Shown one piece after another: positions 12,036 through 51,007 of a stretch of 64,000 nt of DNA. Position 1 is the stretch's first letter. The number at the start of each line of letters is the position of its first letter. The notes beneath the pieces are model-generated. The model ran no database searches. It worked only from the letters and a program-made list of their open reading frames with translations, and was not told where the DNA came from. The stretch is from an uncultured Nitrososphaerales archaeon (lineage in GTDB: Archaea; Thermoproteota; Nitrososphaeria; Nitrososphaerales; Nitrososphaeraceae): contig CAVOHZ010000010.1 in NCBI GenBank assembly GCA_963695855.1, positions 896,001 to 960,000 of the forward strand. Direction: 5' to 3'. Made by a program: the position numbers and the translations under genes.

Positions 12036-12110
12036 GGGCCGGTGGTCTAGCCTGGTTAGGATACCGCCTTGACATGGCGGGGATCGTTGGTTCGAATCCG
12101 ACCCGGCCCA
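12036..12110 (+). tRNA. trnV: tRNA-Val(GAC), intronless
   Basis: Acceptor stem GGGCCGG/CCGGCCC plus discriminator A; D-arm with TGG; anticodon arm CCGCC-TTGACAT-GGCGG; T-arm GTTGG-TTCGAAT-CCGAC. Confidence 0.97.
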
Positions 12111-12155
12111 GGTCATATCTGTCTGCTTTTATAGGCCCAATACTATATAACATGC

Positions 12156-12569
12156 ATGCAAGTCCAATCTGAAACTGAAGATTATCAGCATGAAATTAAT
12201 CCTATAACAAATTTTCTTTTTGCACTAAAAGCATCTGAAAGTAGGAGACAGTATCCAAAAAGGTTTGAAGTTTTTCTAGATTTTCAACATTTGGAGGGCG
12301 ATTTTAAAAGCAAGGTATTTGCATTTTATAAAAAAACGATAAAAAACCCTCAATGGTTATCAAACAAACTAATAGAATTTATCCAATTTCAAAAAGAAAG
12401 AGTCCAAAAGGGAGAAATTTCTGAATCTACAATTCCCTATTATTTTAAAGCGGTAAAACTATTTTGTGTAATGAATGATATAACTATTAATTGGCAAAAG
12501 ATAAGCAAAGGGATTCCTGCAGGGAAAAGAGCAGCAGAAGACAGAGCACTATCACATAATTATGTCTAA
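12156..12569 (+). pseudogene. Tyrosine integrase, N-terminal (core-binding) fragment; catalytic domain missing
   Basis: FLFALKASESRRQYPKR...FIQFQKERV.KGEISESTI.YYFKAVKLFC.MND...W.KISKGIP..KRAAEDRA resembles thaumarchaeal integrase N-termini; starts 46 nt after the tRNA and stops before any R-H-R-Y catalytic residues. Confidence 0.78.
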
Positions 12570-13704: not shown

Positions 13705-14430
13705 GGTGCTATTAACTTAAGGAAAGAGATATAGCTGTGAACGTTCTATTCTAACAATATATGTTATTAAGATTTGTCAGAAATAGAACATCCGCATGTA
13801 TAGTAATGTACTCTTTGTGTTTGTACTTTCTTGGTCTCAGTCTACGAAATACATCCAAAGCATTGGTAATATTTAGAGATAAAAAGAGAAGTCACATTGC
13901 TGTATGGAACTGGATTCAAAGATTTGGTTCATTGCAGATCTACAATAAACATAGAAGAATTTCTGCATTCATAATTGATGAAACTATAATTCAGATTGGT
14001 GATCAACACTTTTGGTTATGGATTTGTATTGAACCAATTCATTCTTCAGTGCTTGGAATCCATATTTCTGAAGAGAGAAATATGCTTGTTGCTGAAAAAT
14101 TCCTTAGATCGTTAGTTGAGAAGTATGGAAGGCATCCAGTTTACACAGATGGTGGGACATGGTATCCAGAAGCATGTAATCTACTGGGATTGAAGCACTA
14201 TCTACATTCTTCGATAGAGAAAAGTCTAATGGAACGGGTTAACCAGTATTTGAAAGATAGAACAGAATGTTTTGATGATTACTATCCATGTATCAAAGAG
14301 GAATGTAATCTATTTCATGTATATAACTGGATACAATTCTTTGTATCTATGTATAATGATACAATAGCAGATAATAATAATTATGATTTTGAGTTAAAGG
14401 AGGTGGAAATTATCTTAAATTAACAGAGCC
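13705..14430 (+). mobile_element. IS6-family insertion sequence
   Basis: Imperfect terminal inverted repeats GGTGCTATTAACTTAAG / CTTAAATTAACAGAGCC enclosing the transposase; target duplication only partial. Confidence 0.85.
13761..14423 (+). CDS. IS6-family transposase
   Basis: [40 protein letters not shown] motifs. Confidence 0.9.
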
Positions 14431-17201: not shown

Positions 17202-17392
17202 AAAGATTGATAGAAGTGGCTATGAAAAATGCACAGGATTTCCTCAATCAACATAGTCCAACATTAGCAATGATAGAATTTGAACAAGCAAGATTAAGAA
17301 ATTTCTTGAAGGAGTGAAATTTCCCTTTATTTTTATTAATTTAAAATAATTAAAAAATAAATCTTTAATATTATTATCTTTATTACCATATA

Positions 17393-17440
17393 TTAGACTC
17401 TTATTTTTGCACCGCTATAGGTATTACTACCTCCTTGGCA
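17393..17440 (+). repeat. att-like site, family A (degenerate core)
   Basis: TTAGACTCTTATTTTTGCACCGCTATAGGTATTACT; one of 7 copies. Confidence 0.75.
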
Positions 17441-26169: not shown

Positions 26170-26453
26170 GAAATAGATACAAACGGGTAAAATCAAATAA
26201 TGTATCTAAAAAAGTACCGGCTTTTTATTTATTATAGCTTTATAAGAATAATTCTTATGTATAAAGTTAAAAAATGACGATATTGAAAAGTAATAATTTT
26301 CTATATTGTTTTGCCTTTATACTCTTCCTTCTTCTATTTGATTATTTTACCATTAATTATGACCTATTCTTATTCTTTCTATAACCATCGCATTTTTTTG
26401 TATTTGGTTATTTACCTGAAGCTGGAGGTCTTCCTTCAGTTGAAGATCCAGCG

Positions 26454-26495
26454 GTAGAACCGTACTACATGGAGGACTCTATCTTGAACGGGCCC
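26454..26495 (+). repeat. att-like site, family D with CGGGCCC core
   Basis: GTAGAACCGTACTACATGGAGGACTCTATCTTGAACGGGCCC. Confidence 0.65.
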
Positions 26496-26658
26496 CTGCA
26501 GATATAATGCTAAAATATAAGTTAGTATATACTAAAACCTTAACAAAATGGGTTAGTCTCAAAGAATAGAAACTCCCTTTTTTAGATAAATTAGGCACTT
26601 AAATCTTCCGTGATCAAGTTACTTTGTTTAATGCTATAAAATTTTTTTGTGTACAACT

Positions 26659-28410: not shown

Positions 28411-29534
28411 TACCAATTAAGATAAATATGCTTACTCACCTCCAACCAGGTAATTTCTCATATTCAGATTGAATCTTTTTGTTCTAAAATATGTAGATAT
28501 TTTAATTATGAAATCTGTAAATGAGCGATAGTATTGTAGGACAAGCAGATCGTTTTTGGCTATATTCCAGCATTCTTCCAGTACCATAAATTCTGGAGAT
28601 GCTGTTGGAAGATATACTGGAATCAGATCCTTTTTGTGTTTGTCAAAATATTGCAGTACCTTTTTTGATTTATAGTGTTGTTTTGCTTTATCCAGAAATA
28701 TATAACATTTTGGAAATTTTTTATGTATTTGTTTTAGATAATTAAGAAATGTATTTTCATCAAACCAGTCATATTGCCTGAACAGTTGTTTTCCTTCTAA
28801 ACTTGTGGCACCAAATAGAACTGACTCCTGATGATATCCATTAATTCTTACTACTGGTCTTTCATCTTTTCTTATCCAGACTCTTCTTACAAGAGAGTCA
28901 AAGAAAAAGAATGATTCATCAGTAGATACTACCGTGAATCCTTCTTGGAGATTATCCAGTATCTTGCTCTTTTTTAAAACCTTCTTTCTCTTCTTTTGGT
29001 GCAGTGTTTACATGTACTTTTCTTGGTACCTTCTGTTTGAATCCCCATCTTCGAAGTAATGTGTAAATGTAAATATGATGGTAGTGTATACCGCTTTCTC
29101 TGACTATGATATCATAAACCTGTTTTGTAGTCCATCCCTGTTTGCTAGACGACAGTTTATTTTTTATCTTGTATACTGTCTCTTCTGGTATATCTGGTGG
29201 TCTACCACTTTTTGATCTGTTTTTTAATCCTTCTATACCTTCTTCCCTGTACCTCTTTAACCAATCAGAAGCCCATGTTCTGCTTCTGTGGAGATCTCTT
29301 GCAACCTGTGCAGGAATATGTTTGTCATATACTACGTTTAACACAAGCAACATTCTTTCCCTTACACCTACATCAGATTCTTGTTTATACAGTTGCTCAA
29401 ATCTTGTTCTAGAAAGATTATTGCTCTCAATCAAATGATAAACTGTATGCTTCCTTTCTTAGCTAAATCTATTATTGTCTAAAGTGTATGACCATGATGT
29501 TAAATTAATGTCAGCATAATTATATTAATTGGTA
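28411..29534 (-). mobile_element. IS630-family IS (two-ORF, frameshifted transposase)
   Basis: Ends TACC...GGTA flanked by TA; orfA 28952..29434 (HTH) and orfB in the -1 frame with DES, LDKA and EEC catalytic residues; TTTTAAAAAAG at the junction. Confidence 0.9.
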
Positions 29535-29550
29535 TAGTATCACTATAAAA

Positions 29551-29590
29551 TTGGACTCTTATTTTTGCGCCGCTATCGGTATTATTCTCT
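29551..29590 (+). repeat. att-like site, family A
   Basis: TTGGACTCTTATTTTTGCGCCGCTATCGGTATTATTCTC. Confidence 0.72.
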
Positions 29591-29626
29591 ATATTCATTA
29601 TGGTAGAAGTTTTTGTTTGTATTTAT

Positions 29627-29960: not shown

Positions 29961-30020
29961 AATGATAAAAGCTAAATACAATGTAGTAGAAGCCTACTGC
30001 ATGGAAGATTCTACTCCCGA
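29961..30020 (+). repeat. att-like site, family D
   Basis: AATGATAAAAGCTAAATACA-ATGTAGTAG-AAGC-CTACTGCAT-GGAAGATTCTACTCCCGA. Confidence 0.72.
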
Positions 30021-30509
30021 TGAACTACATGAATATGTACATGATCCCACCACTTAAAGTGATTATTCTCATTACAAATTTTAACATCTTATCTTTTAAA
30101 GATATTGATTCTGAATATTACAACAACAAGAAATTATTCTTTATTTTTTTGATTCTAATCCTCTTGATAGAATTCTAATCTGTAGAGTGCAAAGAACATT
30201 TAAGCTCTCATTTGGCCGTCATGCCATAAGGCATAGTGGCCCAAATCCATCTTATAACTATAAAATCTATATCTTCTGTTCCGCGGTTACGAAATTAATA
30301 GTTACGCAATCATGCAATTTATTATTACGAAATACACAGATTCACTTTTTTTGGTCTTGCGATATTTCAGCCCTTGCGCCACCACAGTAATTTCATTTTT
30401 ATTCTATTCTGTGATTCTTTGTGTGGTCTAAGGCATAGCAAAAAGCAGGCAAAAATCATTATAATAGGGGATAAAACTTATTAGCTGACTTATTTAAAAA
30501 TAGGTAGTG

Positions 30510-33145: not shown

Positions 33146-33354
33146 AATCAAATATAACAAAAACAGTACGAAATAAAGATTTCTATTCGATCTATTTTAA
33201 ACATTATCCTTCCTCGCCAATCGCGTTTAAAACATTTAATATAAAAGGAAATTATTCATTGCTAGAACAAAAGTTAGTAATAGTAGGTAATAATCAAGCA
33301 AAATAAAGTGATAAATTGGCTCTGACGATATGAAAATCTTCTAGTATATTCCAT

Positions 33355-34762
33355 TACTGTATGTTGGCTAGGTTCAAACTTAACATACTCCGTATGAGAG
33401 TGAGGCTCTGACTGAACCGTATCTTATGAATGAATGAGTGGCTATCATAGTACCCTTAGAGGGTGAATGGATGTTTGCCACCTGTTAGCCAACAACAAGA
33501 ACTAAAAAAGAAGGTGAATGAAAAAGAAAATTGAATCATCTTGGAATAGATGTCGGAAAAAGAATATGCAGAGTAGCACTAAAAGATGACATGGGAAAGA
33601 TACAGGATGAATTCTTCTTTGGTAACAATTCTCAGGGAATATTAGAATTGATTAAAAGGACACACAGTCATGGAACAAAAAAATGTAATGCAGTACTGGA
33701 ATCTACCGGTAACATGTGGATGAGAATACATGATACACTGGAAGATAATGGAATAGATACTATACTTGCCAATCCATACAAGACAAAGATAATAGTACAA
33801 GCAAAGATAAAATCAGATAAACTTGATGCTTCTATATTATCTGATCTGCTGAGAACTGGATTGGTATACGAATCATATGTACCTGTAAAGGAATTCAGAG
33901 AAAAAAGGAGTCTGGTCAGACACAGGATAGTATTATCCAGAACCAAAACAAAACTAGCAAACAAGGTTCATGCTATTTTAGACAAATATGAATACAGAAC
34001 AGAACTGGCAGATATATTTGGAAAATCTGGAATTGAGTGGCTGAAATCACTGTCTGTTTCACCAATAGACAAAATAATACTGAATACGACACTAACATCA
34101 ATAGAATCTATAGCTAACCAGATAGAAATAGTATCAAAAGAGATAGCAAGATATGCCTGGCAAGATAGTCAAGATGTAAAGTTACTTCTAAGTATTACAG
34201 GTATAGACATATTTTCTGCAATGCTGATATCAACAGAGATAGTTGATATCACTAGATTCTCTACACCATGGAAACTTGTTAGTTATGCAGGATTGGCACC
34301 ATCTACAAGAGAGTCATCTGGAAAAATAAAAACAGGTAGAATAACAAAACAAGGTTCTCCATTGCTGAGATGGATACTAGTACAGTGTTCATTATCTGCC
34401 ATCAGACATGACCATCATATGAGAACATTCTATGAAAGAATCAAACAGAGAAAGGGGCATGGAAAAGCAATAGTTGCGACAGCAAAAGAAATGCATGTTG
34501 TAATATGGTACATGCTAACAAGACACCAATTGTATAGATACATGAACAAGACTAGATATGAGGAGAAACTAGAAAGACTGAAGAAGATCGGATCTCAATA
34601 AAGTAAAGGTAATTAGACAACAAAAAGACAATGACCTCTGAGAATAGGAACGTCATATATAGCGGAGGCTATTGTTGACAATGCTTAATAGATAGAAAGA
34701 CATAACAAAATAAGGCTGAACAGGATACAAAAGATAACCAGCATACATGTAGATTTTCATGG
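33355..34762 (+). mobile_element. IS110-family element (ends approximate)
   Basis: Recombinase ORF with about 170 bp 5' and 160 bp 3' of non-coding sequence; no terminal inverted repeats or target duplication seen, as expected for IS110. Confidence 0.75.
33531..34601 (+). CDS. IS110-family DEDD recombinase (transposase)
   Basis: GIDVG, LESTG and KSDKLD (DEDD); Tnp20 domain SITGI, SYAGLAPSTRESSG, GRITKQG, AIVATA. Confidence 0.95.
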   Translation: MNHLGIDVGKRICRVALKDDMGKIQDEFFFGNNSQGILELIKRTHSHGTKKCNAVLESTGNMWMRIHDTLEDNGIDTILANPYKTKIIVQAKIKSDKLDASILSDLLRTGLVYESYVPVKEFREKRSLVRHRIVLSRTKTKLANKVHAILDKYEYRTELADIFGKSGIEWLKSLSVSPIDKIILNTTLTSIESIANQIEIVSKEIARYAWQDSQDVKLLLSITGIDIFSAMLISTEIVDITRFSTPWKLVSYAGLAPSTRESSGKIKTGRITKQGSPLLRWILVQCSLSAIRHDHHMRTFYERIKQRKGHGKAIVATAKEMHVVIWYMLTRHQLYRYMNKTRYEEKLERLKKIGSQ

Positions 34763-34763
34763 A

Positions 34764-34859
34764 TGTTAAGTTAAGGAAAATTTATGAAATAAATTGAAAA
34801 ATTCTTTTGAAATTGAGCACAGAACATACCTATTACTTTATCCTTAAGTTAACAGGGCC
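34764..34859. mobile_element. Short IS6-derived MITE-like remnant
   Basis: TGTTAAGTTAAGG ... CCTTAAGTTAACAGGGCC; the right end resembles the IS6 right terminal repeat at 14414-14430. Confidence 0.5.
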
Positions 34860-34934
34860 CTATAAACCCGACATTTTTTTCTTTTTTTCTATAATTTATA
34901 AATCTATTACTCTAGCGATATTCTTTTAGTGTTA

Positions 34935-34967
34935 TTGAACTCAAGAGACTGTTCAACTCCCGACGGG
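34935..34967 (+). repeat. att-like site with a tRNA T-loop and 3' fragment
   Basis: TTGAAC-N10-GTTCAA inverted repeat overlapping GTTCAACTCCCGACGGG (T-loop, T-stem and partial acceptor strand). Confidence 0.65.
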
Positions 34968-35057
34968 TATGTTATAAATATAATTCATTTCACTTTTATA
35001 CGATTTTGTAATATTGATATATCAATAATTAAATTTGATATACGATAATAACATATC

Positions 35058-35468: not shown

Positions 35469-35659
35469 TAATCTATTTATTTTTATTTTATACTTATTGG
35501 CATGGAGCTTTGGTTTTTCATCAGAAAAGATTTTGGAACTGGTGAGAGGTTTTTTGGACAAGATTCTTTCAACAAGATAACAAAAGTTAAGTATTGACGT
35601 TTGTTGAAATCTAATTTTAAAAATTGGTCATATCTTCTATTATGACAGGTTACATTATA

Positions 35660-35691
35660 GAGGCAAAAATGCCTCTCAACCCGACTCCCCC
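35660..35691 (+). repeat. att-like site, family B
   Basis: GAGGCA-AAAA-TGCCTC-TCAA-CCCGAC... Confidence 0.72.
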
Positions 35692-35855: not shown

Positions 35856-37154
35856 TTATTTGTGGATATATAAGTTCAATACAGCCTTTTCATTATCCCC
35901 GTTTATATTGTCTATAATAAGTTTAGGATTATTAGAAATATCTTCAGGGAATGAATATTGAAATGCAAATGTACCAAAAGAAGATTTTTGATTTTCTGTA
36001 TAAATTATCTTATTTTTATCCTCTACTACAAAATCAAAACTAGAATGTCTTACCAAATCTCCTATTTTAGGATCTTGTAAATTCATAATAAAATTAATAG
36101 GAGTTGATGGAGTTATTAAGGAAGGATTCCAAGAAATTTGAACTAAAAATTTTTCGTTAGATGTTAAAATATCTAAGGGAAATTGTGGTTTCTCTACGGT
36201 ATATAATTTAAATGAAGTAGGAATTTGGTTATTAGTAATATCAATATCTTGGGAGATTTGTCGAGATAATTGATCCAATTGATCTTTATTTAGAACTAAA
36301 TGAATAATGCGTGAATTTAGATCTGAATAGTCATCTATGATCAGGGATCTTGTTGGAAGATTCTTTTCAAATATCAAACCGCCATAACTATTAGTATTAG
36401 AAATGTCAAGTAGTTTTGGTATTACAAATTCAATGTGCAAGTATTCCATTTGTTGTATGTATATCGGGTTCCAATTGAATGGCATTTCAAATGCTAATGT
36501 ATTATTTTCCTTAACATAGTTAATATTTCTTAAAGAATCATAATAACTTTTAATTATACCATTGTTTTTTTCTTCAGTGGTGTCTTGTATGTTGAAGTAA
36601 TGATCTTCACCTATACTTATGAATAAGTCAACTACTATATCATTTTCTAATGCTAATCCTCCACTTGGTTTTTTAAAAGTAATAGATAGATGATATAAAC
36701 CACCCTGTGAGAGAATTTTACTTGTTATTTCAAATCTATCATTTTGTTTGATATTTTGTATACAATCTATAGAATTTAATTGGATACCATTCTTAGAAAT
36801 AATAGCCTCAGTTATGTTTATTGCAATAAGTTTAGAATTAAAAAGACCAGCGCTAGATTTGATACATAGATTTAAAAATAATTCTTTATCTGAGAAAATT
36901 TTTATATCATAATCCAAATCAGAGATTGTTTGATTAGTCAACTGGTCATAAATCCTTAATAAAAATTTCGGATCAGTATAATCAATAGAGTTATTAACAT
37001 ATGCAGGCTCTAATTTTGCTTCTACTACAATTTTTTTACCAGGCACATCAACTGGATTGGAAATATCTGTACTAAGACCATGTCCATTAACTTGGATATA
37101 GGAAATTTTAAAGAGGATTAAGAATATGAATATAAAAATACCAATAGAATTCAT
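35856..37154 (-). CDS. Secreted hypothetical protein (thaumarchaeal type)
   Basis: Signal peptide followed by HGL; GGLYH, SYYD, FEMPFNW, H.EF.IPK and IDDYS...RIIHLVL segments. Confidence 0.78.
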   Translation of the reverse strand: MNSIGIFIFIFLILFKISYIQVNGHGLSTDISNPVDVPGKKIVVEAKLEPAYVNNSIDYTDPKFLLRIYDQLTNQTISDLDYDIKIFSDKELFLNLCIKSSAGLFNSKLIAINITEAIISKNGIQLNSIDCIQNIKQNDRFEITSKILSQGGLYHLSITFKKPSGGLALENDIVVDLFISIGEDHYFNIQDTTEEKNNGIIKSYYDSLRNINYVKENNTLAFEMPFNWNPIYIQQMEYLHIEFVIPKLLDISNTNSYGGLIFEKNLPTRSLIIDDYSDLNSRIIHLVLNKDQLDQLSRQISQDIDITNNQIPTSFKLYTVEKPQFPLDILTSNEKFLVQISWNPSLITPSTPINFIMNLQDPKIGDLVRHSSFDFVVEDKNKIIYTENQKSSFGTFAFQYSFPEDISNNPKLIIDNINGDNEKAVLNLYIHK

Positions 37155-37392
37155 TTTTAAATAATGAATAAGATAAAAACAACGATATTAATAAATTTCG
37201 AAAATAGCAAGTCTAGAATATGTATTTGTATATAAAAAGTTCTAAAATAAATAATATAAAAATGATATATTTACAATAACAAAAAAATCATCTATCTATA
37301 CGTAAGGAGACAAGTCTTTAAAATTTGTGGAATAAAATTTTTAATATTGTAATTTTTTTATTAATTATTCTTAAGAAATAAATAACAAAATA

Positions 37393-37426
37393 GAGGCAAA
37401 AATGCCTCGCAACCCGACGGGCCCGT
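37393..37426 (+). repeat. att-like site, family B with intact tRNA-like 3' core
   Basis: GAGGCA-AAAA-TGCCTC-GCAA-CCCGA-CGGGCCC-GT. Confidence 0.8.
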
Positions 37427-37722
37427 ACGTTTCTAGGGCCCAGCACCTAGGATTATATTAATAGAGTATTCCAATATTATCAAACTTTTAAAAACTAGGC
37501 TATAAGGAAACAAACTGTGAGACATTTGCTGAAGCATTAAAAAAGCAGTTTAAATACTTTATTGTTTTCATCTTGTTTTTATATGCTATCAATTAATTAC
37601 CATTGTTATCATTTACTTTTCACTCATCATCGAAAATATCATTTAAATTACCTAGATTATTCGATTTGGTACATTAACAAACAAAACAAAATCTTTTAAC
37701 AAGTTTATATTATTGATAAATA

Positions 37723-38019
37723 TTGGATAGAGAAAAAATTCTTAGAAACTTATTTAATAAAGCCACTGAAGATACAATAGAAACTCTACCTTATACAATT
37801 CAAGTATTTCAGAACCCTTCATATGATCTAAAGAAAACAGTAACGAATGATTTGGATTTTCTTTTAGGGGCATTTTTTGGACAGGTAATTTTGTTTTATT
37901 CTGTTTATTGTTCCAACAAAGATATGAAGCCAACAATTGAAGAATCAAATCAATTTAATTATGAATTATTTTCGAAGGCAGAAGAATACAAAACTATTAT
38001 CAAAGAATTAATGGTATGA
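37723..38019 (+). CDS. Hypothetical protein
   Basis: 98-aa ORF lying alone between two att-like sites. Confidence 0.65.
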   Translation: MDREKILRNLFNKATEDTIETLPYTIQVFQNPSYDLKKTVTNDLDFLLGAFFGQVILFYSVYCSNKDMKPTIEESNQFNYELFSKAEEYKTIIKELMV

Positions 38020-38178
38020 AAATACTTAAAAGAATCAACTCTAGGAAAACAATATGGTCAGGTTTTTTTAGACAACACAAAACATCGGAAATAGCCAAAA
38101 TCTAAAGAAATTACACTAATCTTTTAAAAATATGTATTCAAAAGTAAATCATAAATGTTATCTCTTTACTACCATACA

Positions 38179-38228
38179 TTAGACTCTAATTTTTGCACCG
38201 CTATCGGTGTTACTCCCGACGGGCCCGT
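38179..38228 (+). repeat. att-like site, family A with intact tRNA-like 3' core
   Basis: TTAGACTCTAATTTTT-GCACCG-CTAT-CGGTGT-TACT-CCCGA-CGGGCCC-GT. Confidence 0.82.
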
Positions 38229-38270
38229 GCTGATATAAGTGCTAAAATTATGTTCTTTACAATTTACTAT

Positions 38271-38822
38271 TTAGTATTTTTTTATTATATAAACTAAAGA
38301 ATTTCTATAACTATTTGAGATAGTATGGTATTCATTTACTTTCTTTGTCTTTACAAAACCATTTTTTTCCAAAACTCTTATAGAAGGTTTATTTTCTGGA
38401 AAAACATAAGCTGAAATCTCTTTCAATCCCAATACGTCAAATGCGTAGTTAACCACTAGTTCAATACATTCTGTTGCTATGCCTTTGCCATGATATTGTT
38501 GACCTATCCAGTAACCTATATTTGCTTTTTTATTAACATAATCAATATCTTTAATAGCTATAATTCCAACTAGTAGACGAACTGATTGAAATTTATTTTT
38601 ATAGTCTATAGCAAAAGTTATTGATTTATGTAGCCTAAAATCATCACAACTAGATTTAATAAATTTTAAAGCATCATCTATCTTATAAGGATATGGAACT
38701 TCATAAAGATATTTAGCTATATCATAACTCATAAGATTTACTATATTTGTAACATCATCCATCGAAGGTTCTCTTAAATTGACTAGCTTACCAGATAATT
38801 GTGGAAAAGATGAATTAGTCAT
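38271..38822 (-). CDS. RimJ/RimL-family GNAT N-acetyltransferase
   Basis: ANIGYWIG..YHGKGIATE, YAF..LGL..I.A.V...N..SIRVLEKNGF. Confidence 0.92.
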   Translation of the reverse strand: MTNSSFPQLSGKLVNLREPSMDDVTNIVNLMSYDIAKYLYEVPYPYKIDDALKFIKSSCDDFRLHKSITFAIDYKNKFQSVRLLVGIIAIKDIDYVNKKANIGYWIGQQYHGKGIATECIELVVNYAFDVLGLKEISAYVFPENKPSIRVLEKNGFVKTKKVNEYHTISNSYRNSLVYIIKKY

Positions 38823-38950
38823 CTGCTACTTGTTTTATTATACCACAAAATGCTATATTTAACTAACTTCTACCTTTAGCAAGATAGTATATAATTTTAA
38901 TATATGTTGTTAGAACTTTAAATTAAAATAAGAGCTGTATTTGGAAGTTA

Positions 38951-39031: not shown

Positions 39032-40595
39032 CTATTTGAGTACCTCTGTGACTTTTTTACCATCTTTTGTCCATGATGTTATCTCTTTTTTACCATCAGG
39101 ATATTCTGTAATTACTTGATTATCTTTTGTTGTGGTAATTTTTGTTTCTTCTCCTTTGGACCCGAAAAGTATTGTTTCAGTTGTACCATCAGGAAGTATT
39201 TTTTCAATTTTGTTATCTGTTTTCGTAATTTTACCTGCTGTTATTCCTGAAATTTTATACTCTGTGACACTTAATCCTGGTTTCTCATATTTGCTTTCCA
39301 CAAGGCCGGAAGGATTTACAATATATTCTTTTTTTGTATCTCCCTGTTTTATTTGGTAAACCTTTGTACCATCTGTTTCTTTGTAACTATACCAGTTATC
39401 ATAAGTATGCTGACAATATTTTACTATCTTGTATTATCTTTTAGATCAGAATAGCTATTAGCTGATACTATAAACATGATATCTTATTGACTAGTACAAT
39501 ATCTAAAGCAAGATTTGAAAAACTATACAGATCTGAACATGATACTAATGTAAAGGAAAGAATGCTAATTGTGTTGAACGTAGTATATGATAAACAGATT
39601 CCTGCACAGGTAGCAAGAGATCTTCATAGAAGCAGAACATGGGCTTCTGACTGGTTAAAGAGGTACAGGAAAGAAGGTATAGAAGGATTAAAAAACAGGA
39701 CAAAGAGTGGCAGACCACCAGATATACCAGAAGAGACTGTATATGAGATAAAAAACGAATTAGCATCCAGTAAACAAGGATGGACTACGAAACAGGTAGA
39801 AGATCTAATAGTAAGGAAGAGTGGTGGAATCAGATACCATTATACACATATTTACAGACTAATGCACAAGTGGGGATTCAAACAGAAGGTACCAAGAAAA
39901 GTGCATGTGAACACAGCATCAAAAGAAGAGAAAGAGGATTTTAAAAAAGAGCAAGAAAGGTACTGGATACTCTCCAGCAGCAGCATCAGCAAGAAGGATT
40001 TACAGTAGTATCTACAGATGAATCATTTTTCTTCTATGATTCACTTGTCAGGAAAGTATGGATAAACAAGGATGAAAGACCAGTTGTAAGGATTACGGGG
40101 TCACATCAGGAGTCAGTTCTATTTGGTACCACAAGTCTGGAAGGAAAACAGATGTTCAGGCAATATGACTGGTTTGATGAAAACACATTTTTAGATTATC
40201 TAAAACAGATACACAGAAAGTTTCCAAAATGTTATCTGTTTCTGGATAAAGCAAAACAGCACTACAGATCATATAAGGTACTACGATATTTTGATGAACA
40301 CAAACAGAATCTAATTCCAATATATCTTCCAACAGCATCTCCGGAATTTATGGTACTGGAAGAGATATGGCATATAGCCAAAAACGATCTGCTTGTACTA
40401 CAATACTATTCATCCTTTACAGATTTCAAAAATAAAATATCCTCGTATTTTAAGACAAAAAGATTCTGTCTTGATATGAGACACTATCTGTTGGGAGGTG
40501 TCAGCTAACATATGCTAGATGGTATAGTTGTCGTCTTACCATCAGGATATTCTATGATTATATGATCATTATAACTAGAAAAGATATTTTCGGTC
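39032..40595 (-). pseudogene. Repeat protein with (Y/L)PDG turns, split by IS630
   Basis: Removing the IS and one TA rejoins IIEYPDGKTT/SYKETDGTKVYQIKQGDTKKEY... into listed ORF 39032..39301. Confidence 0.7.
39390..40524 (+). mobile_element. IS630-family IS (orfA 39487..40008 plus orfB to 40508 via -1 frameshift)
   Basis: Terminal repeats TACCAGTTATCATAAGTATGCTGAC / GTCAGCTAACATATGCTAGATGGTA; TA duplication; TTTTAAAAAAG slippery site; TDES, LDKA, EEIW. Confidence 0.92.
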
Positions 40596-45932: not shown

Positions 45933-46112
45933 AAGTGGCTATGAAAAATGGAGACTTTTCTTAATCAACATAATCCAACATTAGCAATGATAGAATTTGA
46001 ACAAGCAAGATTTTTAAGAAATTTCTTGAGAGAGTGAAATTTCCCTTTATTTTTATTAATTTAAAATAATTAAAAAATAAATCTTTAATATTATTATCTT
46101 TATTACCATATA

Positions 46113-46161
46113 TTAGACTCTTATTTCACACTGCTATCGGTGTTACTCCCTACTGGCCGGT
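46113..46161 (+). repeat. att-like site, family A
   Basis: TTAGACTCTTATTTC-ACACTG-CTAT-CGGTGT-TACT-CCCTA-CTGGCCG-GT. Confidence 0.78.
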
Positions 46162-46393: not shown

Positions 46394-47524
46394 TACCAAT
46401 TAGCATAAGTATACTGACTTTATTTTACTATTGTATCATACATTTTAGAGCAGAATAGCTATTAGCTACTATTATTATTAACATGATACATCTTATTGAT
46501 TACTACAGAAATATCAAAAACAAGATTTGAAAAACTATACAGATCTGAAAATGATGCTAATGTAAAGGAAAGAATGCTACTTGTTTTAAATGTAGTATAC
46601 GAGAAACAGATTCCCGCACAGGTAGCAAGAGATCTTCATAGAAGCAAGACATGGGCATCTGACTGGTTAAAGAGATACAGAGAAGAAGGAATAGAAGGAT
46701 TAAAAAACAGAACAAAGAGTGGAAGACATCCAGATCTATCAGAAGATACAATATATGAAATAATAAAGGAATTATCATCCAGCAAACAAGGTTGGACTAC
46801 AAAACAGGTAGAAGATCTGATTGTGAAAAAGAGTGGTGGAATAAGATACCATTACACCCACGTATACAGACTCATGCACAAGTGGGGATTCAAGCAGAAG
46901 GTACCAAGAAAGTTACATGTTAATACAGCATCAAAAGAAGAGAAAGAAAATTTTAAAAAACAGCCAGAACGATTCTGGATACTCTCCACGACGAAGGATT
47001 CACGGTAGTATCTACAGATGAATCATTTTTCTTCTATGATTCACTCGTCAGGAAAGTATGGATAAGCAAGTATGAAAGACCAGTTGTAAGGATTACAGGG
47101 TCCCATCAGGAATCTGTCTTATTTGGTGCCACAAGCCTTGAAGGAAAACAGTTATTCAGACAGTACTACTGGTTTGATGAAAATACCTGTTTAGATTACC
47201 TAAAACAGATACACAGAAAATTTCCAAAATGTTACTTGTTCCTAGATAAGGCAAAACAACATTACAGATCGAAAAAGGTACTGAAATATTTTGCTGACAA
47301 TGGAGATAGTTTGATTCCAGTTTATCTTCCAACAGCATCTCCAGAGTTTATGGTACTGGAAGAGATATGGCATATAGCCAAAAACGATCTGCTTGTTCTA
47401 CAATATTATTTGTCATTTACTGATTTTAAAAATAAAATATCATTATATTTTAGAACAAAAAGATTTCATCTTGATATGAGAAACTATCTGGTTGATGGTG
47501 TCAGCTAACATATGCTAAGTGGTA
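46394..47524 (+). mobile_element. IS630-family IS (orfA 46496..47008 plus orfB to 47508)
   Basis: TACC...GGTA ends with TA duplication; TTTTAAAAAAC junction; TDES, LDKA, EEIW. Confidence 0.92.
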
Positions 47525-47539
47525 TACTATAACACAATA

Positions 47540-47590
47540 TTAAATTCTTATTTTTGCACTGCTATCGGTATTACTCCCAACGAATCAGTA
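47540..47590 (+). repeat. att-like site, family A
   Basis: TTAAATTCTTATTTTTGCACTGCTATCGGTATTACTCCCAACG. Confidence 0.72.
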
Positions 47591-47658
47591 GATTTCTCTG
47601 GTTCACCTATATTATTCAAAAATATTGAATAGGGTTTAATTTAGTTATCTCAATAATT

Positions 47659-49418: not shown

Positions 49419-49724
49419 ACCTTATTGCTTCTATTATATTTCTTTCTAACATGAAAATTCTATCATCGCTATAGAAAATAAATTTGATGGAATTAAGATA
49501 ATAAAATTTGGATAGGGGTATAATAAAAATACATTATATAATAGGACCCCAATCTGAGTCTATTAATTGATCTGACAGATGATATTAATATTGTGTGTAT
49601 ATATGCAAGAGACAGCATTGATTGTTACTTATCATTTACTATTACTTCACAAATAAATTAAGTTATAAGGGCTTATTAATAATTCAAATCTAAAATCTTA
49701 AATATAATCCATATTGCTATAACA

Positions 49725-49763
49725 TTGGGTCCTAATTTTTCCACCGCTATCGGTATTATTCTC
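49725..49763 (+). repeat. att-like site, family A
   Basis: TTGGGTCCTAATTTTTCCACCGCTATCGGTATTATTCTC; begins the duplicate of 29551-29900. Confidence 0.72.
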
Positions 49764-49809
49764 TATATTCATTATGGTAGAAGATTTTGTTTGTATTTAT
49801 CTAATTTTC

Positions 49810-50822
49810 TGGTTTGTTGCATAACTCGTTTAACCAATCGTTCTCATTATTATATAATTGATAATTATGTAACAGTTATACTTTGAAACCAGTTATACAA
49901 CGATGCTTTCAACATTATCTCTCTTATCATGTTCTCTAACCTGATAGCAGTAACATATTCACCAAACATTCTCTTCATAGAGGAAAAAACAGATTCTACC
50001 ATCCATCTTTGTCCATAGCGTACACTATCTTTCCATTCTTGCAAATCATTCTTCTGCATTTTCACCATCTTGTTTCTAAGGTAATGATTGGTCTTGTTTC
50101 TGCATCTAGAATTCTTTCTTACCTTTATTGCTGGTTGTATGCCTTTAAATGATAGAAACTGAAAGATCTTGTTGCTATCATAGGAACCATCCATGATAGC
50201 AGTATCTATTACCTTATTCTGTTTTATTGCTATATAATCAACCAATTTTGGAAGTACTTTTACATCATGTACTTCTTCACTAGTAACATCTAATGATAGA
50301 ATTCTCTTCTTTTTTATATCGACTGCTAAATGTATCTTTAGATATCCTCTTTTTACATTCCACTTGTGTCTAATCCATTCACCCCTCTTAGATACCTTTA
50401 TACCGGTAGAATCAATTGCAATAACAAAATTATCATCATGCAAGTTAGATTTGGTTATATCATCAGAAATCTTGATATCCAGTCTATTTATTCTTCTGCT
50501 AATGTTACTATAATCTGGAATTGATGGCAAAGTGTTTGAAGCATGTTCTCTTACTACTCCTTCAGTTTGTCTGTAGGGTAAGTGAAAGTATGCTCTCATG
50601 TATCCCAATAACTTGACAAATGAATCTGGATATACGAATTTCCTACCTTCCTTTTCCTTATTCATCTTCTCTAGTTCAGTATTCCAGTTATCTATAACAT
50701 CAAAATCCAGTAATACCTCACCACGTTTAACAAGAGATTCGTTGTAATTTCTCCAGTTCACATAATATGACTAGAATTGGTTAGCTAAATGTGTTGAGAA
50801 GAACAAGTTGTGCAACAAGGCA
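49810..50822 (-). mobile_element. IS5-family insertion sequence
   Basis: Terminal repeats TGGTTTGTTGCATAACT / AGTTGTGCAACAAGGCA; 8-bp target duplication TAATTTTC (49802-49809, 50823-50830); empty site visible near 29628. Confidence 0.92.
49865..50761 (-). CDS. IS5-family DDE transposase
   Basis: Close paralogue of 10662..11561 with the same motifs. Confidence 0.95.
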   Translation of the reverse strand: MNWRNYNESLVKRGEVLLDFDVIDNWNTELEKMNKEKEGRKFVYPDSFVKLLGYMRAYFHLPYRQTEGVVREHASNTLPSIPDYSNISRRINRLDIKISDDITKSNLHDDNFVIAIDSTGIKVSKRGEWIRHKWNVKRGYLKIHLAVDIKKKRILSLDVTSEEVHDVKVLPKLVDYIAIKQNKVIDTAIMDGSYDSNKIFQFLSFKGIQPAIKVRKNSRCRNKTNHYLRNKMVKMQKNDLQEWKDSVRYGQRWMVESVFSSMKRMFGEYVTAIRLENMIREIMLKASLYNWFQSITVT

Positions 50823-51007
50823 TAATTTTCCATATTCTTGCCTTTCTTACTATTTAATATTATTGGAAAACCAAAAAGTAAAAATAGTAAACTAATCATT
50901 GGAACAAATATTCGAATGGAACTTTCTGTTATAGTTATAATTAACGGAATTGCCAACATGACAGCGCCTAACACCATAAAAATTATTCCTATTCTTCTCT
51001 CTTCCAA
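50771..51007 (-). CDS. Small two-helix membrane protein, 3' end extended into IS5
   Basis: Paralogue of 29627..29812; the IS inserted at its stop codon region. Confidence 0.55.
   Translation of the reverse strand: MEERRIGIIFMVLGAVMLAIPLIITITESSIRIFVPMISLLFLLFGFPIILNSKKGKNMENYALLHNLFFSTHLANQF

Follow-up and report, generated by a model that had tools for sequence, protein, structure and literature searches.

Integrative elements of Thaumarchaeota have short attachment (att) sites with a median length of 17 bp, 57% of which lie in tRNA genes (Krupovic et al., 2019; PMC6563490), and arrays formed by the re-use of one site are known for elements with tyrosine recombinases (PMC6563490; PMC8371274). 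Archaeal metagenome-assembled genomes have been reported to contain canonical integrons, complete with IntI and attC (Ghaly et al., 2022; PMC9668308). Here, we describe a stretch of 64,000 nucleotides from an uncultured Nitrososphaerales archaeon (the window; G000:C10:896001-960000, within a genome of 3.55 Mb, whose contigs are cited below as contig:position), in which two hairpins of unrelated sequence stand at the same distance from copies of a core that resembles a tRNA 3′ end. The hairpin sites fall within a class already described, the att junctions left by stacked integrative units that target tRNA genes, and there is little doubt that at this locus they are the junctions of elements stacked at a tRNA-Lys core.

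As in the elements described by Krupovic et al. (2019; PMC6563490), the cores are short (here 14-16 bp), the target is an intron-containing tRNA gene, an integrase gene lies beside the tRNA-proximal junction, and re-use of the site gives arrays. In contrast to those elements, one 14-16-bp site serves at least five types of right arm here, four of them with integrases, dozens of junction modules are found per genome and kept genus-wide, and integrase-less units are as small as 802 bp. The term 'Nitrosocosmicus' has 0 occurrences in the available text of PMC6563490.

Units stacked at copies of a tRNA-Lys 3′ end

The window is AT-rich (about 30% G+C) and has one detectable tRNA, archaeal in look. 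The 14-mer CCCGACGGGCCCGT, referred to as the core, occurs in it exactly twice, against 0.00 copies expected, and the whole genome holds 25 sites with at most one mismatch to CCCGACGGGCCC, compared with two for the reversed control. Among these 25 sites is the 3′ terminus of a tRNA-Lys(UUU) gene with an intron (G000:C8:2734-2821), which ends in ...GGGTTCAACTCCCGACGGGCCCG; its final 13 nt, CCCGACGGGCCCG, together with one more nucleotide make up the core. In terms of the tRNA, the core therefore comprises CCCGA (3′ strand of the T stem), CGGGCCC (acceptor strand) and G (discriminator), to which a T is added. An initial annotation, made from the sequence of the window, had called the core tRNA-like, and it is indeed the 3′ end of the tRNA-Lys(UUU) gene of this genome. 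The tRNA-Lys 3′ end was recovered from 20 of 25 genomes of the genus.

Sequences directly to the left of the core are designated arms A, B, D and E, of which A and B carry the two hairpins at issue, and sequences to the right are designated T1 to T5. In the relative G035, the counterparts of two blocks of the window adjoin each other: 37281-37426, which ends in B arm and core (90% identity), and 38215-38862, which comprises the core, the T3 flank and a GNAT gene (97% identity). Both alignments overlap on a single copy of the core, so that the window holds an extra 802 bp. This unit (37427-38228) is composed of a T1 arm, an open reading frame (ORF) of 98 aa and an A arm, and the identical 14-bp core copies at 37413-37426 and 38215-38228 form its direct repeats. 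Judged by this comparison, it is an integrase-less unit inserted into a pre-existing B-core-T3 junction that is still empty in G035. Because the unit sits between the core copies, hairpin B is the end of an older left neighbour, while hairpin A is the end of the inserted unit. The locus represents the successive insertion of two different mobile elements at copies of the last 14 bases of tRNA-Lys, which is the usual scar of an integrase.

The 98-aa ORF has 195 homologues, with 80-100% identity among the 120 matches listed (the 100% row being the window's own protein), and no Pfam family was found for it. It is strongly conserved in Nitrososphaeraceae, its neighbourhood differs between genomes, and an att module stands near it only in this genome, G035 and G014, with none nearby in most relatives. 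Like an integrase-less mobilisable element or cassette, the unit has att sites at both ends and candidate integrases elsewhere, its movement being documented by a single comparison of an empty and a filled site. In streptococci, CIMEs (cis-mobilizable elements) found with ICESt1-type elements are integrase-less, att-bounded segments in tandem with integrase-bearing elements at the 3′ end of a tRNA gene or another gene. By analogy, att-bounded integrase-less segments lie in tandem here too, and mobilisation in trans is presumed; unlike CIMEs, they reside in an archaeal host, are associated with other integrase families and are far more numerous and far smaller.

Junctions of this type are frequent. 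Family A is a non-coding repeat of ~95 nt with about 54 BLAST copies in the genome; A arms were present in 18/18 other genus genomes drawn and in 0/12 genomes of other genera of the order, and B arms were recovered from 20 relatives. Among 45 core-like sites in the genome, 34 have recognised arms, the left one being A at 19 sites, D at 7, E at 3, B at 2 and the tRNA itself at 1, and the right one belonging to the T1/T2 class at 22, to T3 at 4 and to T4 at 2. The A and B families are invariably left of the core, clustered and co-oriented, and 7/7 A and D-like copies listed for the window are on the + strand. These arrays, in which an element-side left arm is followed by the core and the right arm of the next unit, are built by repeated insertion at the same core.

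Right flanks were classified over 22 tRNA-Lys genes of the genus. T1 (GTAGTTTTCTMGGGYYCAC...) was found at five, with no adjoining integrase ORF, T2 together with an integrase at four (ORF of 448 aa in the copy of this genome), T3 at five (429 aa), T4 at two (405 aa) and T5 at two (an integrase homologue cut by the contig end), and at four genes the contig ended instead. The integrase ORFs beside T3 (three loci), T4 (two), T5 (one) and the T2 of this genome start 52-70 nt past the core. The complete 448-aa T2-type frame (C8:2892-4235) starts 70 nt downstream of the tRNA-Lys gene, and a second copy (C8:291544-290264) shows 80% identity over 427 aa. Over 388 aa, the integrases of T3 and T4 share 47% of their residues (E = 7e-123), and the T5 integrase is 45% identical to that of T4; BLASTP gave no similarity between the T2 and T3 integrases.

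By homology, these integrases are tyrosine recombinases. The matches of three tested integrases to PF00589 (Phage_integrase) have E values of 1e-4 to 4e-3 and scores of 17.6-22.6 bits, compared with a curated cut-off of 27.1, and the family of the T4 integrase comprises 2811 proteins at E ≤ 1e-5, many with PF00589 and the source name integrase. The homologues are labelled Nitrososphaeraceae or Ca. Nitrosocosmicus by their sources. In NCBIfam, the three integrases gave weak matches to the archaeal XerA model NF040815 (recomb_XerA_Arch, 'site-specific tyrosine recombinase/integron integrase') and none to families specific to integron integrases, and no PDB entry was matched by the T4 integrase at E ≤ 1 (phmmer). 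A tyrosine recombinase is encoded beside the tRNA-proximal junction in this genome and in relatives, not inside the 802-bp unit, and the core is an att core for several tyrosine-integrase element lineages across the genus.

Hairpin geometry and inverted arms

Hairpin B (GAGGCA-AAAA-TGCCTC, 37393-37408) is followed by GCAA-CCCGA-CGGGCCC-GT up to 37426, and hairpin A (GCACCG-CTAT-CGGTGT, 38195-38210, outermost pair G·T) by TACT-CCCGA-CGGGCCC-GT up to 38228. The initial annotation had described a 6-bp stem, a 4-nt loop and 9 nt to the acceptor strand for both, with no hairpin sequence in common, and we found both points to be correct: the A and B arms are unrelated, and comparison of the A, B and D arms with one another gave no similarity. 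In A and B alike, the hairpin centre lies 16.5 bp from the A of CCCG-A-CGGG and the spacer has the same 4 nt; the equal geometry is real. Two more families had been listed alongside them. "Family C" is not independent but a copy of B that has gained a seventh pair through one substitution; its spacing, given as the same 9 nt, is 8 nt with the 7-bp stem, and its acceptor strand is decayed. "Family D", with the 9-bp stem, 4-nt loop and 18 nt described for it, is a genuine arm type but does not have the geometry of A and B, and the acceptor strand is absent in that copy. Because C is a B copy and D differs, A and B alone are independent sequences with the exact geometry.

As hairpins, both are beyond chance. 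Perfect stems with a 4-nt loop occur in the genome at rates per position of 6.5e-4 (at least 6 bp), 2.1e-3 (at least 5 bp) and 6.9e-3 (at least 4 bp), and three loci of the 64-kb window have a hairpin of at least 6 bp with a 4-nt loop and at least three G/C per arm, two of the three being B copies. When the DNA 16-mers are folded in isolation, that of B reaches -5.4 kcal/mol (z = -5.7) and that of A, with five pairs, -5.1 kcal/mol (z = -4.6).

The arms in which the hairpins lie are similar to the inverted arms of particular integrases. The A arm scored 41 against the reverse complement of T3, compared with 17-18 ± 3.4 for shuffled sequences, and the B arm scored 34-35 against the reverse complement of T4, compared with 20-21; 0/300 shuffles were as high in either case, and the cross pairs A-T4 and B-T3 were not significant in the shuffle test. 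A natural 5.3-kb element in the relative G033 runs from core, T3 and integrase to an A arm and a second core, and its ends, inverted repeats of ~50 nt, score 39 against 16.9 (0/1000 shuffles as high). A natural 3.3-kb unit in G006 extends from core, T4 and an integrase fragment to a B arm.

When the arms were combined into composite sites of the excised form (attP), A-core-T3 and B-core-T4, the best dyad lay 0.5 nt left of the A in CCCGACGGG, with 30-31/49 and 25-26/49 complementary positions about it, respectively. The left hairpins have their centres at -16.5; at +15.5, T4 has the mirrored element GCA-AATA-TGC and T3, by hand count, CG-ATAT-CG. The dyad, CCCG/ACGGG, is the middle of a 16-nt block common to the A arms and the tRNA-Lys gene. 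The excised attP is expected to be an imperfect palindrome about this same dyad, since the left arm is an inverted version of the integrase-proximal arm, and strand exchange is expected there because the dyad is central in the block. Palindromic arms served by different integrases, one of the possibilities raised by the initial annotation, are supported by the match of the arms to the inverted integrase-proximal arms of two homologous integrases. Since the arms invert those of the homologous T3 and T4 integrases, an inherited att-site architecture is the likeliest cause of the common spacing, which probably reflects related integrases.

Canonical sites of tyrosine recombinases, such as dif of XerA or lambda attB on tRNA stem-loops, have inverted binding elements and an overlap of 6-8 bp (PMC8371274). 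As in those sites, the dyad CCCG-A-CGGG here is central in the tRNA-shared block and has inverted repeats on both sides; unlike in those sites, it is the junction of T stem and acceptor stem, not a 7-nt loop, and the inverted elements extend to about 50 bp, with an inner 4-nt-spaced palindrome on each side at ±16. Arm sites of archaeal integrases are not described in the available text of PMC8371274, in which 'arm-type' has 0 occurrences.

The following mechanism could account for the geometry. The hairpins would be short inverted repeats in the double-stranded element-side arm (GAGG-CA-N4-TG-CCTC in B, AC-CG-N4-CG-GT in A) that probably serve as sites for the integrase or an accessory factor, fixed 16.5 bp from the dyad. 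Strand exchange would take place at the dyad, with cleavage points predicted within CCCGACGG. The geometry of A and B would be equal since their cognate integrases, beside the T3 and T4 arms, are homologous, the recognition sequences having diverged. The explanation as a whole, att junctions of stacked elements with the hairpins as candidate double-stranded binding sites, appears likely to us, whereas for the hairpins themselves, as putative binding sites with an inherited geometry, we put the chance slightly below even.

A number of observations weigh against this explanation. The A arms stand mostly before T1-class flanks (10/19 in this genome, by a pattern that also captures T2), and in the shuffle test T1 did not match A in inverted orientation. 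An A arm also closes a 2.3-kb unit with an unrelated T2-type integrase (C8:291624 to 289347), so A is not exclusive to one integrase family. The arms of the T4...B unit in G006 score 28 against 22.3 ± 3.9, which is not significant (88/1000 shuffles as high). Natural junctions of this genome show no significant ungapped dyad symmetry, the best being A-core-T3short with 21/40 positions (17/200 shuffles as high), and the junction at C6:93782 shows none. The palindromic attP sites were composited in part from arms of different genomes, and arms were paired with integrases on the basis of inverted-repeat similarity and of one natural element each. When a palindrome is mirrored in an inverted-repeat arm, the mirror copy does not count as independent evidence, and the equal geometry comes from two independent families and was spotted post hoc. 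Finally, no integrase adjoins the hairpin sites in the window or in the 802-bp unit, and we infer that this unit was moved in trans by an integrase encoded elsewhere.

Alternative explanations for the hairpins

Stem covariation, proposed as a check by the initial annotation, was assessed within each family. The A set consisted of 57 distinct copies with at most two substitutions in ACCGCTATCGGT, a selection biased towards pairing. In these, 80.4% of cells are paired, and the second pair is unpaired in 49/57 copies, leaving ACCG/CGGT with four pairs; the full 6-bp stem is confined to a minority. The covariation score of 0.030 equals that of shuffled sets (0.032; 251/500 shuffles as high). In the B set (27 distinct copies from this genome and 20 relatives), 94.4% of cells are paired and the 16-mer is perfect in 19/27 copies, the sequence further left not being conserved; no pair is changed on both sides, and all nine non-standard cells break pairs. 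Compensatory change was thus detected in neither hairpin, the variants breaking rather than restoring pairs. Of the proposal that structure or spacing is under selection, the equal position and the 4-nt spacer of A and B remain, but not the folded structure. Sequence conservation within a family is what is expected of double-stranded protein-binding sites or of recently spread repeats.

Recently spread repeats might have acquired their geometry by coincidence, the A and B arms being the ends of young amplified units, their hairpins without a role and the equal offset due to chance. Only two independent families are at hand, covariation is found in neither, most A copies have a 4-bp stem, for which the genomic rate given above is the highest of the three, and the best DNA fold of the A region in context pairs the A arm with the T3 flank and skips hairpin A (z = -1.2). 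The observation is, moreover, a post hoc one, and many other offsets and loop sizes would have been possible. However, the chance of meeting a perfect 6-bp stem with a 4-nt loop is about 6.5e-4 at one fixed offset, uncorrected for the reader's freedom of choice, and about 0.03 anywhere within 40 nt; both hairpins are at -16.5 from one dyad that is also the symmetry centre of the arm pairs, and the B 16-mer is mostly perfect beside unconserved sequence. We therefore consider coincidence unlikely, though a serious contender. More strongly disfavoured is recognition by shape, in which the hairpins fold as single-stranded or cruciform DNA in the manner of integron attC sites and structure is what is selected. 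Both isolated 16-mers do fold well, small integrase-less units form arrays, one of them with a single gene, and the arm pairs are imperfect palindromes. The analogy to attC drawn in the initial annotation nevertheless fails on the variation described above, namely the lack of compensatory change in B and A, the four pairs of most A copies and the conservation within families at the level of sequence. In addition, the hairpin and the crossover region (the core) are 9 nt apart, the latter not being at the stem base, inspection revealed no R''/R' boxes at the A and B hairpins (consensus RYYYAAC...GTTRRRY), and the integrases match no integron-specific family, NF040815 being a weak match. Integron cassette arrays also have co-oriented short modules between small cargo, and many lack an adjacent integrase (PMC9668308). 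In contrast to integrons, an IntI-type integrase and an attI/Pc platform appear to be lacking here, a tRNA 3′ end forms the core, variation that preserves structure is not seen in the hairpins, and the crossover is outside the hairpin; the term 'tRNA' has 0 occurrences in the available text of PMC9668308. Altogether, folding of the attC type is improbable.

Hairpins at element ends could instead be terminators or insulators that end transcription, protecting element genes from read-through or the other way round. B matches a hairpin with a T-tract (GAGGCATTTTTGCCTC TATTTTGTTA) on the minus strand, upstream of the minus-strand gene 35856-37154, and a T5 tract precedes A on the plus strand. The pattern scan uses bacterial consensus sequences, however, and A gives no match to it. 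Archaeal termination requires oligo-T but is not known to require a hairpin. Because A and B differ in strand and layout, such a role would leave the shared core geometry unexplained, and we regard it as improbable too. The ~50-nt inverted repeats at the ends of the 5.3-kb element and the 14-bp direct repeats flanking the insertion would also suit a casposon- or DDE-like transposon, with A and T3 arms as terminal inverted repeats, a 14-bp target duplication and no site-specific recombination, and a single core between neighbouring units fits either mechanism. Yet a tyrosine-recombinase homologue is the sole enzyme gene at element ends, every repeat is one and the same sequence taken from the tRNA, inverted ends are missing from the T1...A unit, and no Cas1 or DDE gene was found in the units examined, nearby insertion sequences (ISs) having their own boundaries; transposition of this kind is very improbable. 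The exact tRNA 3′ end in the core and the TATA-like AT-rich motifs upstream in the A and E arms might, lastly, suggest that hairpin and core form a gene for a tRNA-like or tRNA-half RNA, such as a split tRNA or a decoy. ARAGORN and Rfam found nothing at the hairpin-core sites, Rfam yielding no match at gathering thresholds and chance-level matches at E ≤ 10. Furthermore, A is unlike the tRNA beyond its last 16 nt (150-426/500 shuffles as high), an internal T5 tract lies directly before hairpin A, and a full tRNA-Lys gene is present elsewhere in the genome, which leaves this explanation scarcely credible.

Several more specific readings were rejected. On the minus strand, the A arm and core read ...GPVGSNTDSGAKIRV followed by a stop, and the longest ORF ending in the 54 A copies has 90 codons, most having 17-40; since no long ORF ends in them, an attP of the SSV type inside an integrase gene was discarded along with the coding reading. 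An IS110 end or guide-RNA target does not apply, as the IS110 element stops at 34828, ahead of the E arm (34884-34970), itself part of a different repeat. The readings as split tRNA or shared tRNA promoter were dismissed because the CTATTACTCTAGCGATAT motif is not upstream of real tRNA genes, and the A arm as a decayed tRNA 3′ half was not significant past the last 16 nt. T1 is not significantly similar to T2 (10 against 12.5 ± 2.6), and the D arm is at best weakly similar to inverted T1 or T2 (77/300 and 7/300 shuffles as high, respectively). An IS that targets A arms was considered for the flank CTCTATATTC..., which proved to be a repeated sequence of ~300 nt with an IS5-like element inside one copy. 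Dyad symmetry of other T3/T4-like junctions was not significant, save for the T arm's own symmetry at C5, and no distal ends of T2-integrase elements of relatives were found within the contigs fetched.

Neighbouring features and implications

The arms, cores and flanks of the window are listed in Table 1.

Table 1. Positions of arms, core copies and adjoining sequences in the window.
Feature	Position	Strand	Remarks
A-arm copy	17340..17431	+	without core
Degenerate D-like arm	26440..26525	+	followed by ACGGGCCCC, then T3-like flank
A-arm copy	29550..29592	+	without core, joined to repeated flank CTCTATATTC...
"Family D", ATGTAGTAG-AAGC-CTACTGCAT	29981..30021	+	8 Watson-Crick pairs and one G·T, then 18 nt ending in CCCGA
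E arm	34884..34970	+	promoter-like motif ...CTATTACTCTAGCGATAT, variable stretch, GTTCAACT, truncated core CCCGACGGG
"Family C", AGAGGCA-AAAA-TGCCTCT-caacccga-ctccccc	35659..35691	+	B-arm copy, 7-bp stem, decayed core (CCCGAC, then TCCCCC)
B arm	37387..37412	+	element-side left arm, end of older left element; contains hairpin B; 27 distinct copies
Core copy 1, CCCGACGGGCCCGT	37413..37426	+	left direct repeat of 802-bp insertion
T1-type right arm, GTACGTTTCTAGGGCCCAGCACC	37425..37449	+	opening bases of inserted unit; GGGCCC pairable with core GGGCCC
98-aa ORF	37723..38019	+	sole gene of inserted unit; conserved hypothetical protein
A arm	38122..38214	+	last ~95 nt of inserted unit; contains hairpin A
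Core copy 2	38215..38228	+	right direct repeat of insertion
Short T3-type flank, GCTGATATAAGTGCTAAAAT...	38229..38252	+	runs into GNAT gene block; directly after B-core in G035
A-arm copy	46060..46161	+	decayed core (CCCTACTGGCCG), T2-like flank
A-arm copy	47539..47610	+	decayed core, T1-like flank
A-arm copy	49682..49767	+	joined to flank CTCTATATTC...; IS5-like element 49806-50825 inside flank

Some arms are joined to other sequences at a point within the core. Past CCCGACG, B arms continue into another repeated flank, AGATAATTGCA... (loci L087, L095, L098, L099, L102 and L103 of relatives and C6:130726 of this genome), and A arms into TAGGAAGAC... (C8:201758 and C8:45356 of this genome), which suggests a second, shorter junction point within the core. 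The contig of G035 shares with the window only a block of ~790 bp (B arm, core, T3 flank and the GNAT acetyltransferase gene, 38271-38822), with different sequence beyond it, and this block spanning the core may itself be a moved or rearranged unit.

A T4-like integrase is represented by an N-terminal fragment with 51% identity over 121 aa at 12186-12548 of the window, after tRNA-Val(GAC) (12036-12110), whose own 3′ end (GGCCCA) is repeated 23 nt downstream in its trailer. The island containing the hairpin sites may start in this region (12111-12548). Many tRNA genes of the genome have, 9-24 nt downstream, a short sequence that copies or complements their own acceptor end (GGGCTC for Arg-UCG, GGCCCAA for Arg-GCG, GGCCCA for Val-GAC), and a CA-N4-TG motif is often found 3-4 nt past the tRNA end. 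These copies might be integrase-proximal arms of related elements, which they resemble.

The promoter-like motif of the E arm, (TTAATTAAT/TTTATAAAT)CTATTACTCTAGCGATAT, recurs at 34884-34922 of the window, C10:756814, C10:1678063, C10:1755281, C10:1773161, C8:303238 and other positions (101 short-BLAST hits in the genome, many of them weak and partial). It often stands directly upstream of copies of tRNA 3′ halves that are att cores (Val-UAC, Ser/Leu-like, Lys), as well as before other conserved non-coding sequences, and may be a promoter reading across attP in the excised form. An example is a likely integrated element of ~25 kb at C10:1677980-1703207, with tRNA-Val(UAC) (1703131-1703207, minus strand) and an integrase gene (1701651-1702937) on one side and, near 1678000 on the other, a copy of the tRNA T arm and acceptor end preceded by the motif; its left arm contains an inverted copy (ATAAACCCGTGAAT) of the tRNA trailer.

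The window is also crowded with ISs. An IS110-family element at 33318-34828 (transposase 33531-34601) has a 99% identical copy at C8:48394-49907, and short derivatives that join only the two ends are found, for example, at C10:1407611-1408061 and C8:113560-114024. Further ISs occupy 13761-14423, 28952-29434, 39487-40508, 46496-47508 and 49806-50825. They include three IS630-like copies, whose helix-turn-helix and DDE portions are encoded in separate frames, an IS5-like element present more than 25 times in the genome, and an IS6/IS240-like gene.

Our findings explain GC-rich "tRNA-like" hairpin repeats, scattered in an AT-rich archaeal genome, as junctions of stacked mobile units. A bolder possibility, which we regard as rather doubtful, is that the module of an A (or B, D) arm, core and T1, about 100-135 bp long, is the recombination site of small integrase-less cassettes stacked in trans by integrases anchored at tRNA-Lys; it is based on one empty/filled site, the abundance of integrase-less units and the genus-wide occurrence of the A/B-core-T1 module. 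If true, a genus of soil ammonia oxidisers would possess gene cassettes in an integron-like system that relies on a tRNA 3′ end and palindromic double-stranded arms and does not depend on IntI or attC.

To our knowledge, little is known about the attP architecture of archaeal integrases outside hyperthermophiles and haloarchaea. One 14-16-bp tRNA-Lys site contested by several integrase lineages offers a test case for integrase specificity, the more so as the arm sequences of two homologous integrases appear to have diverged wholly while the spacing is unchanged. The 802-bp pair of an empty and a filled site hints at the mobilisation of small cargo in trans in ammonia-oxidising archaea which, if true, bears on how their variable islands are assembled.

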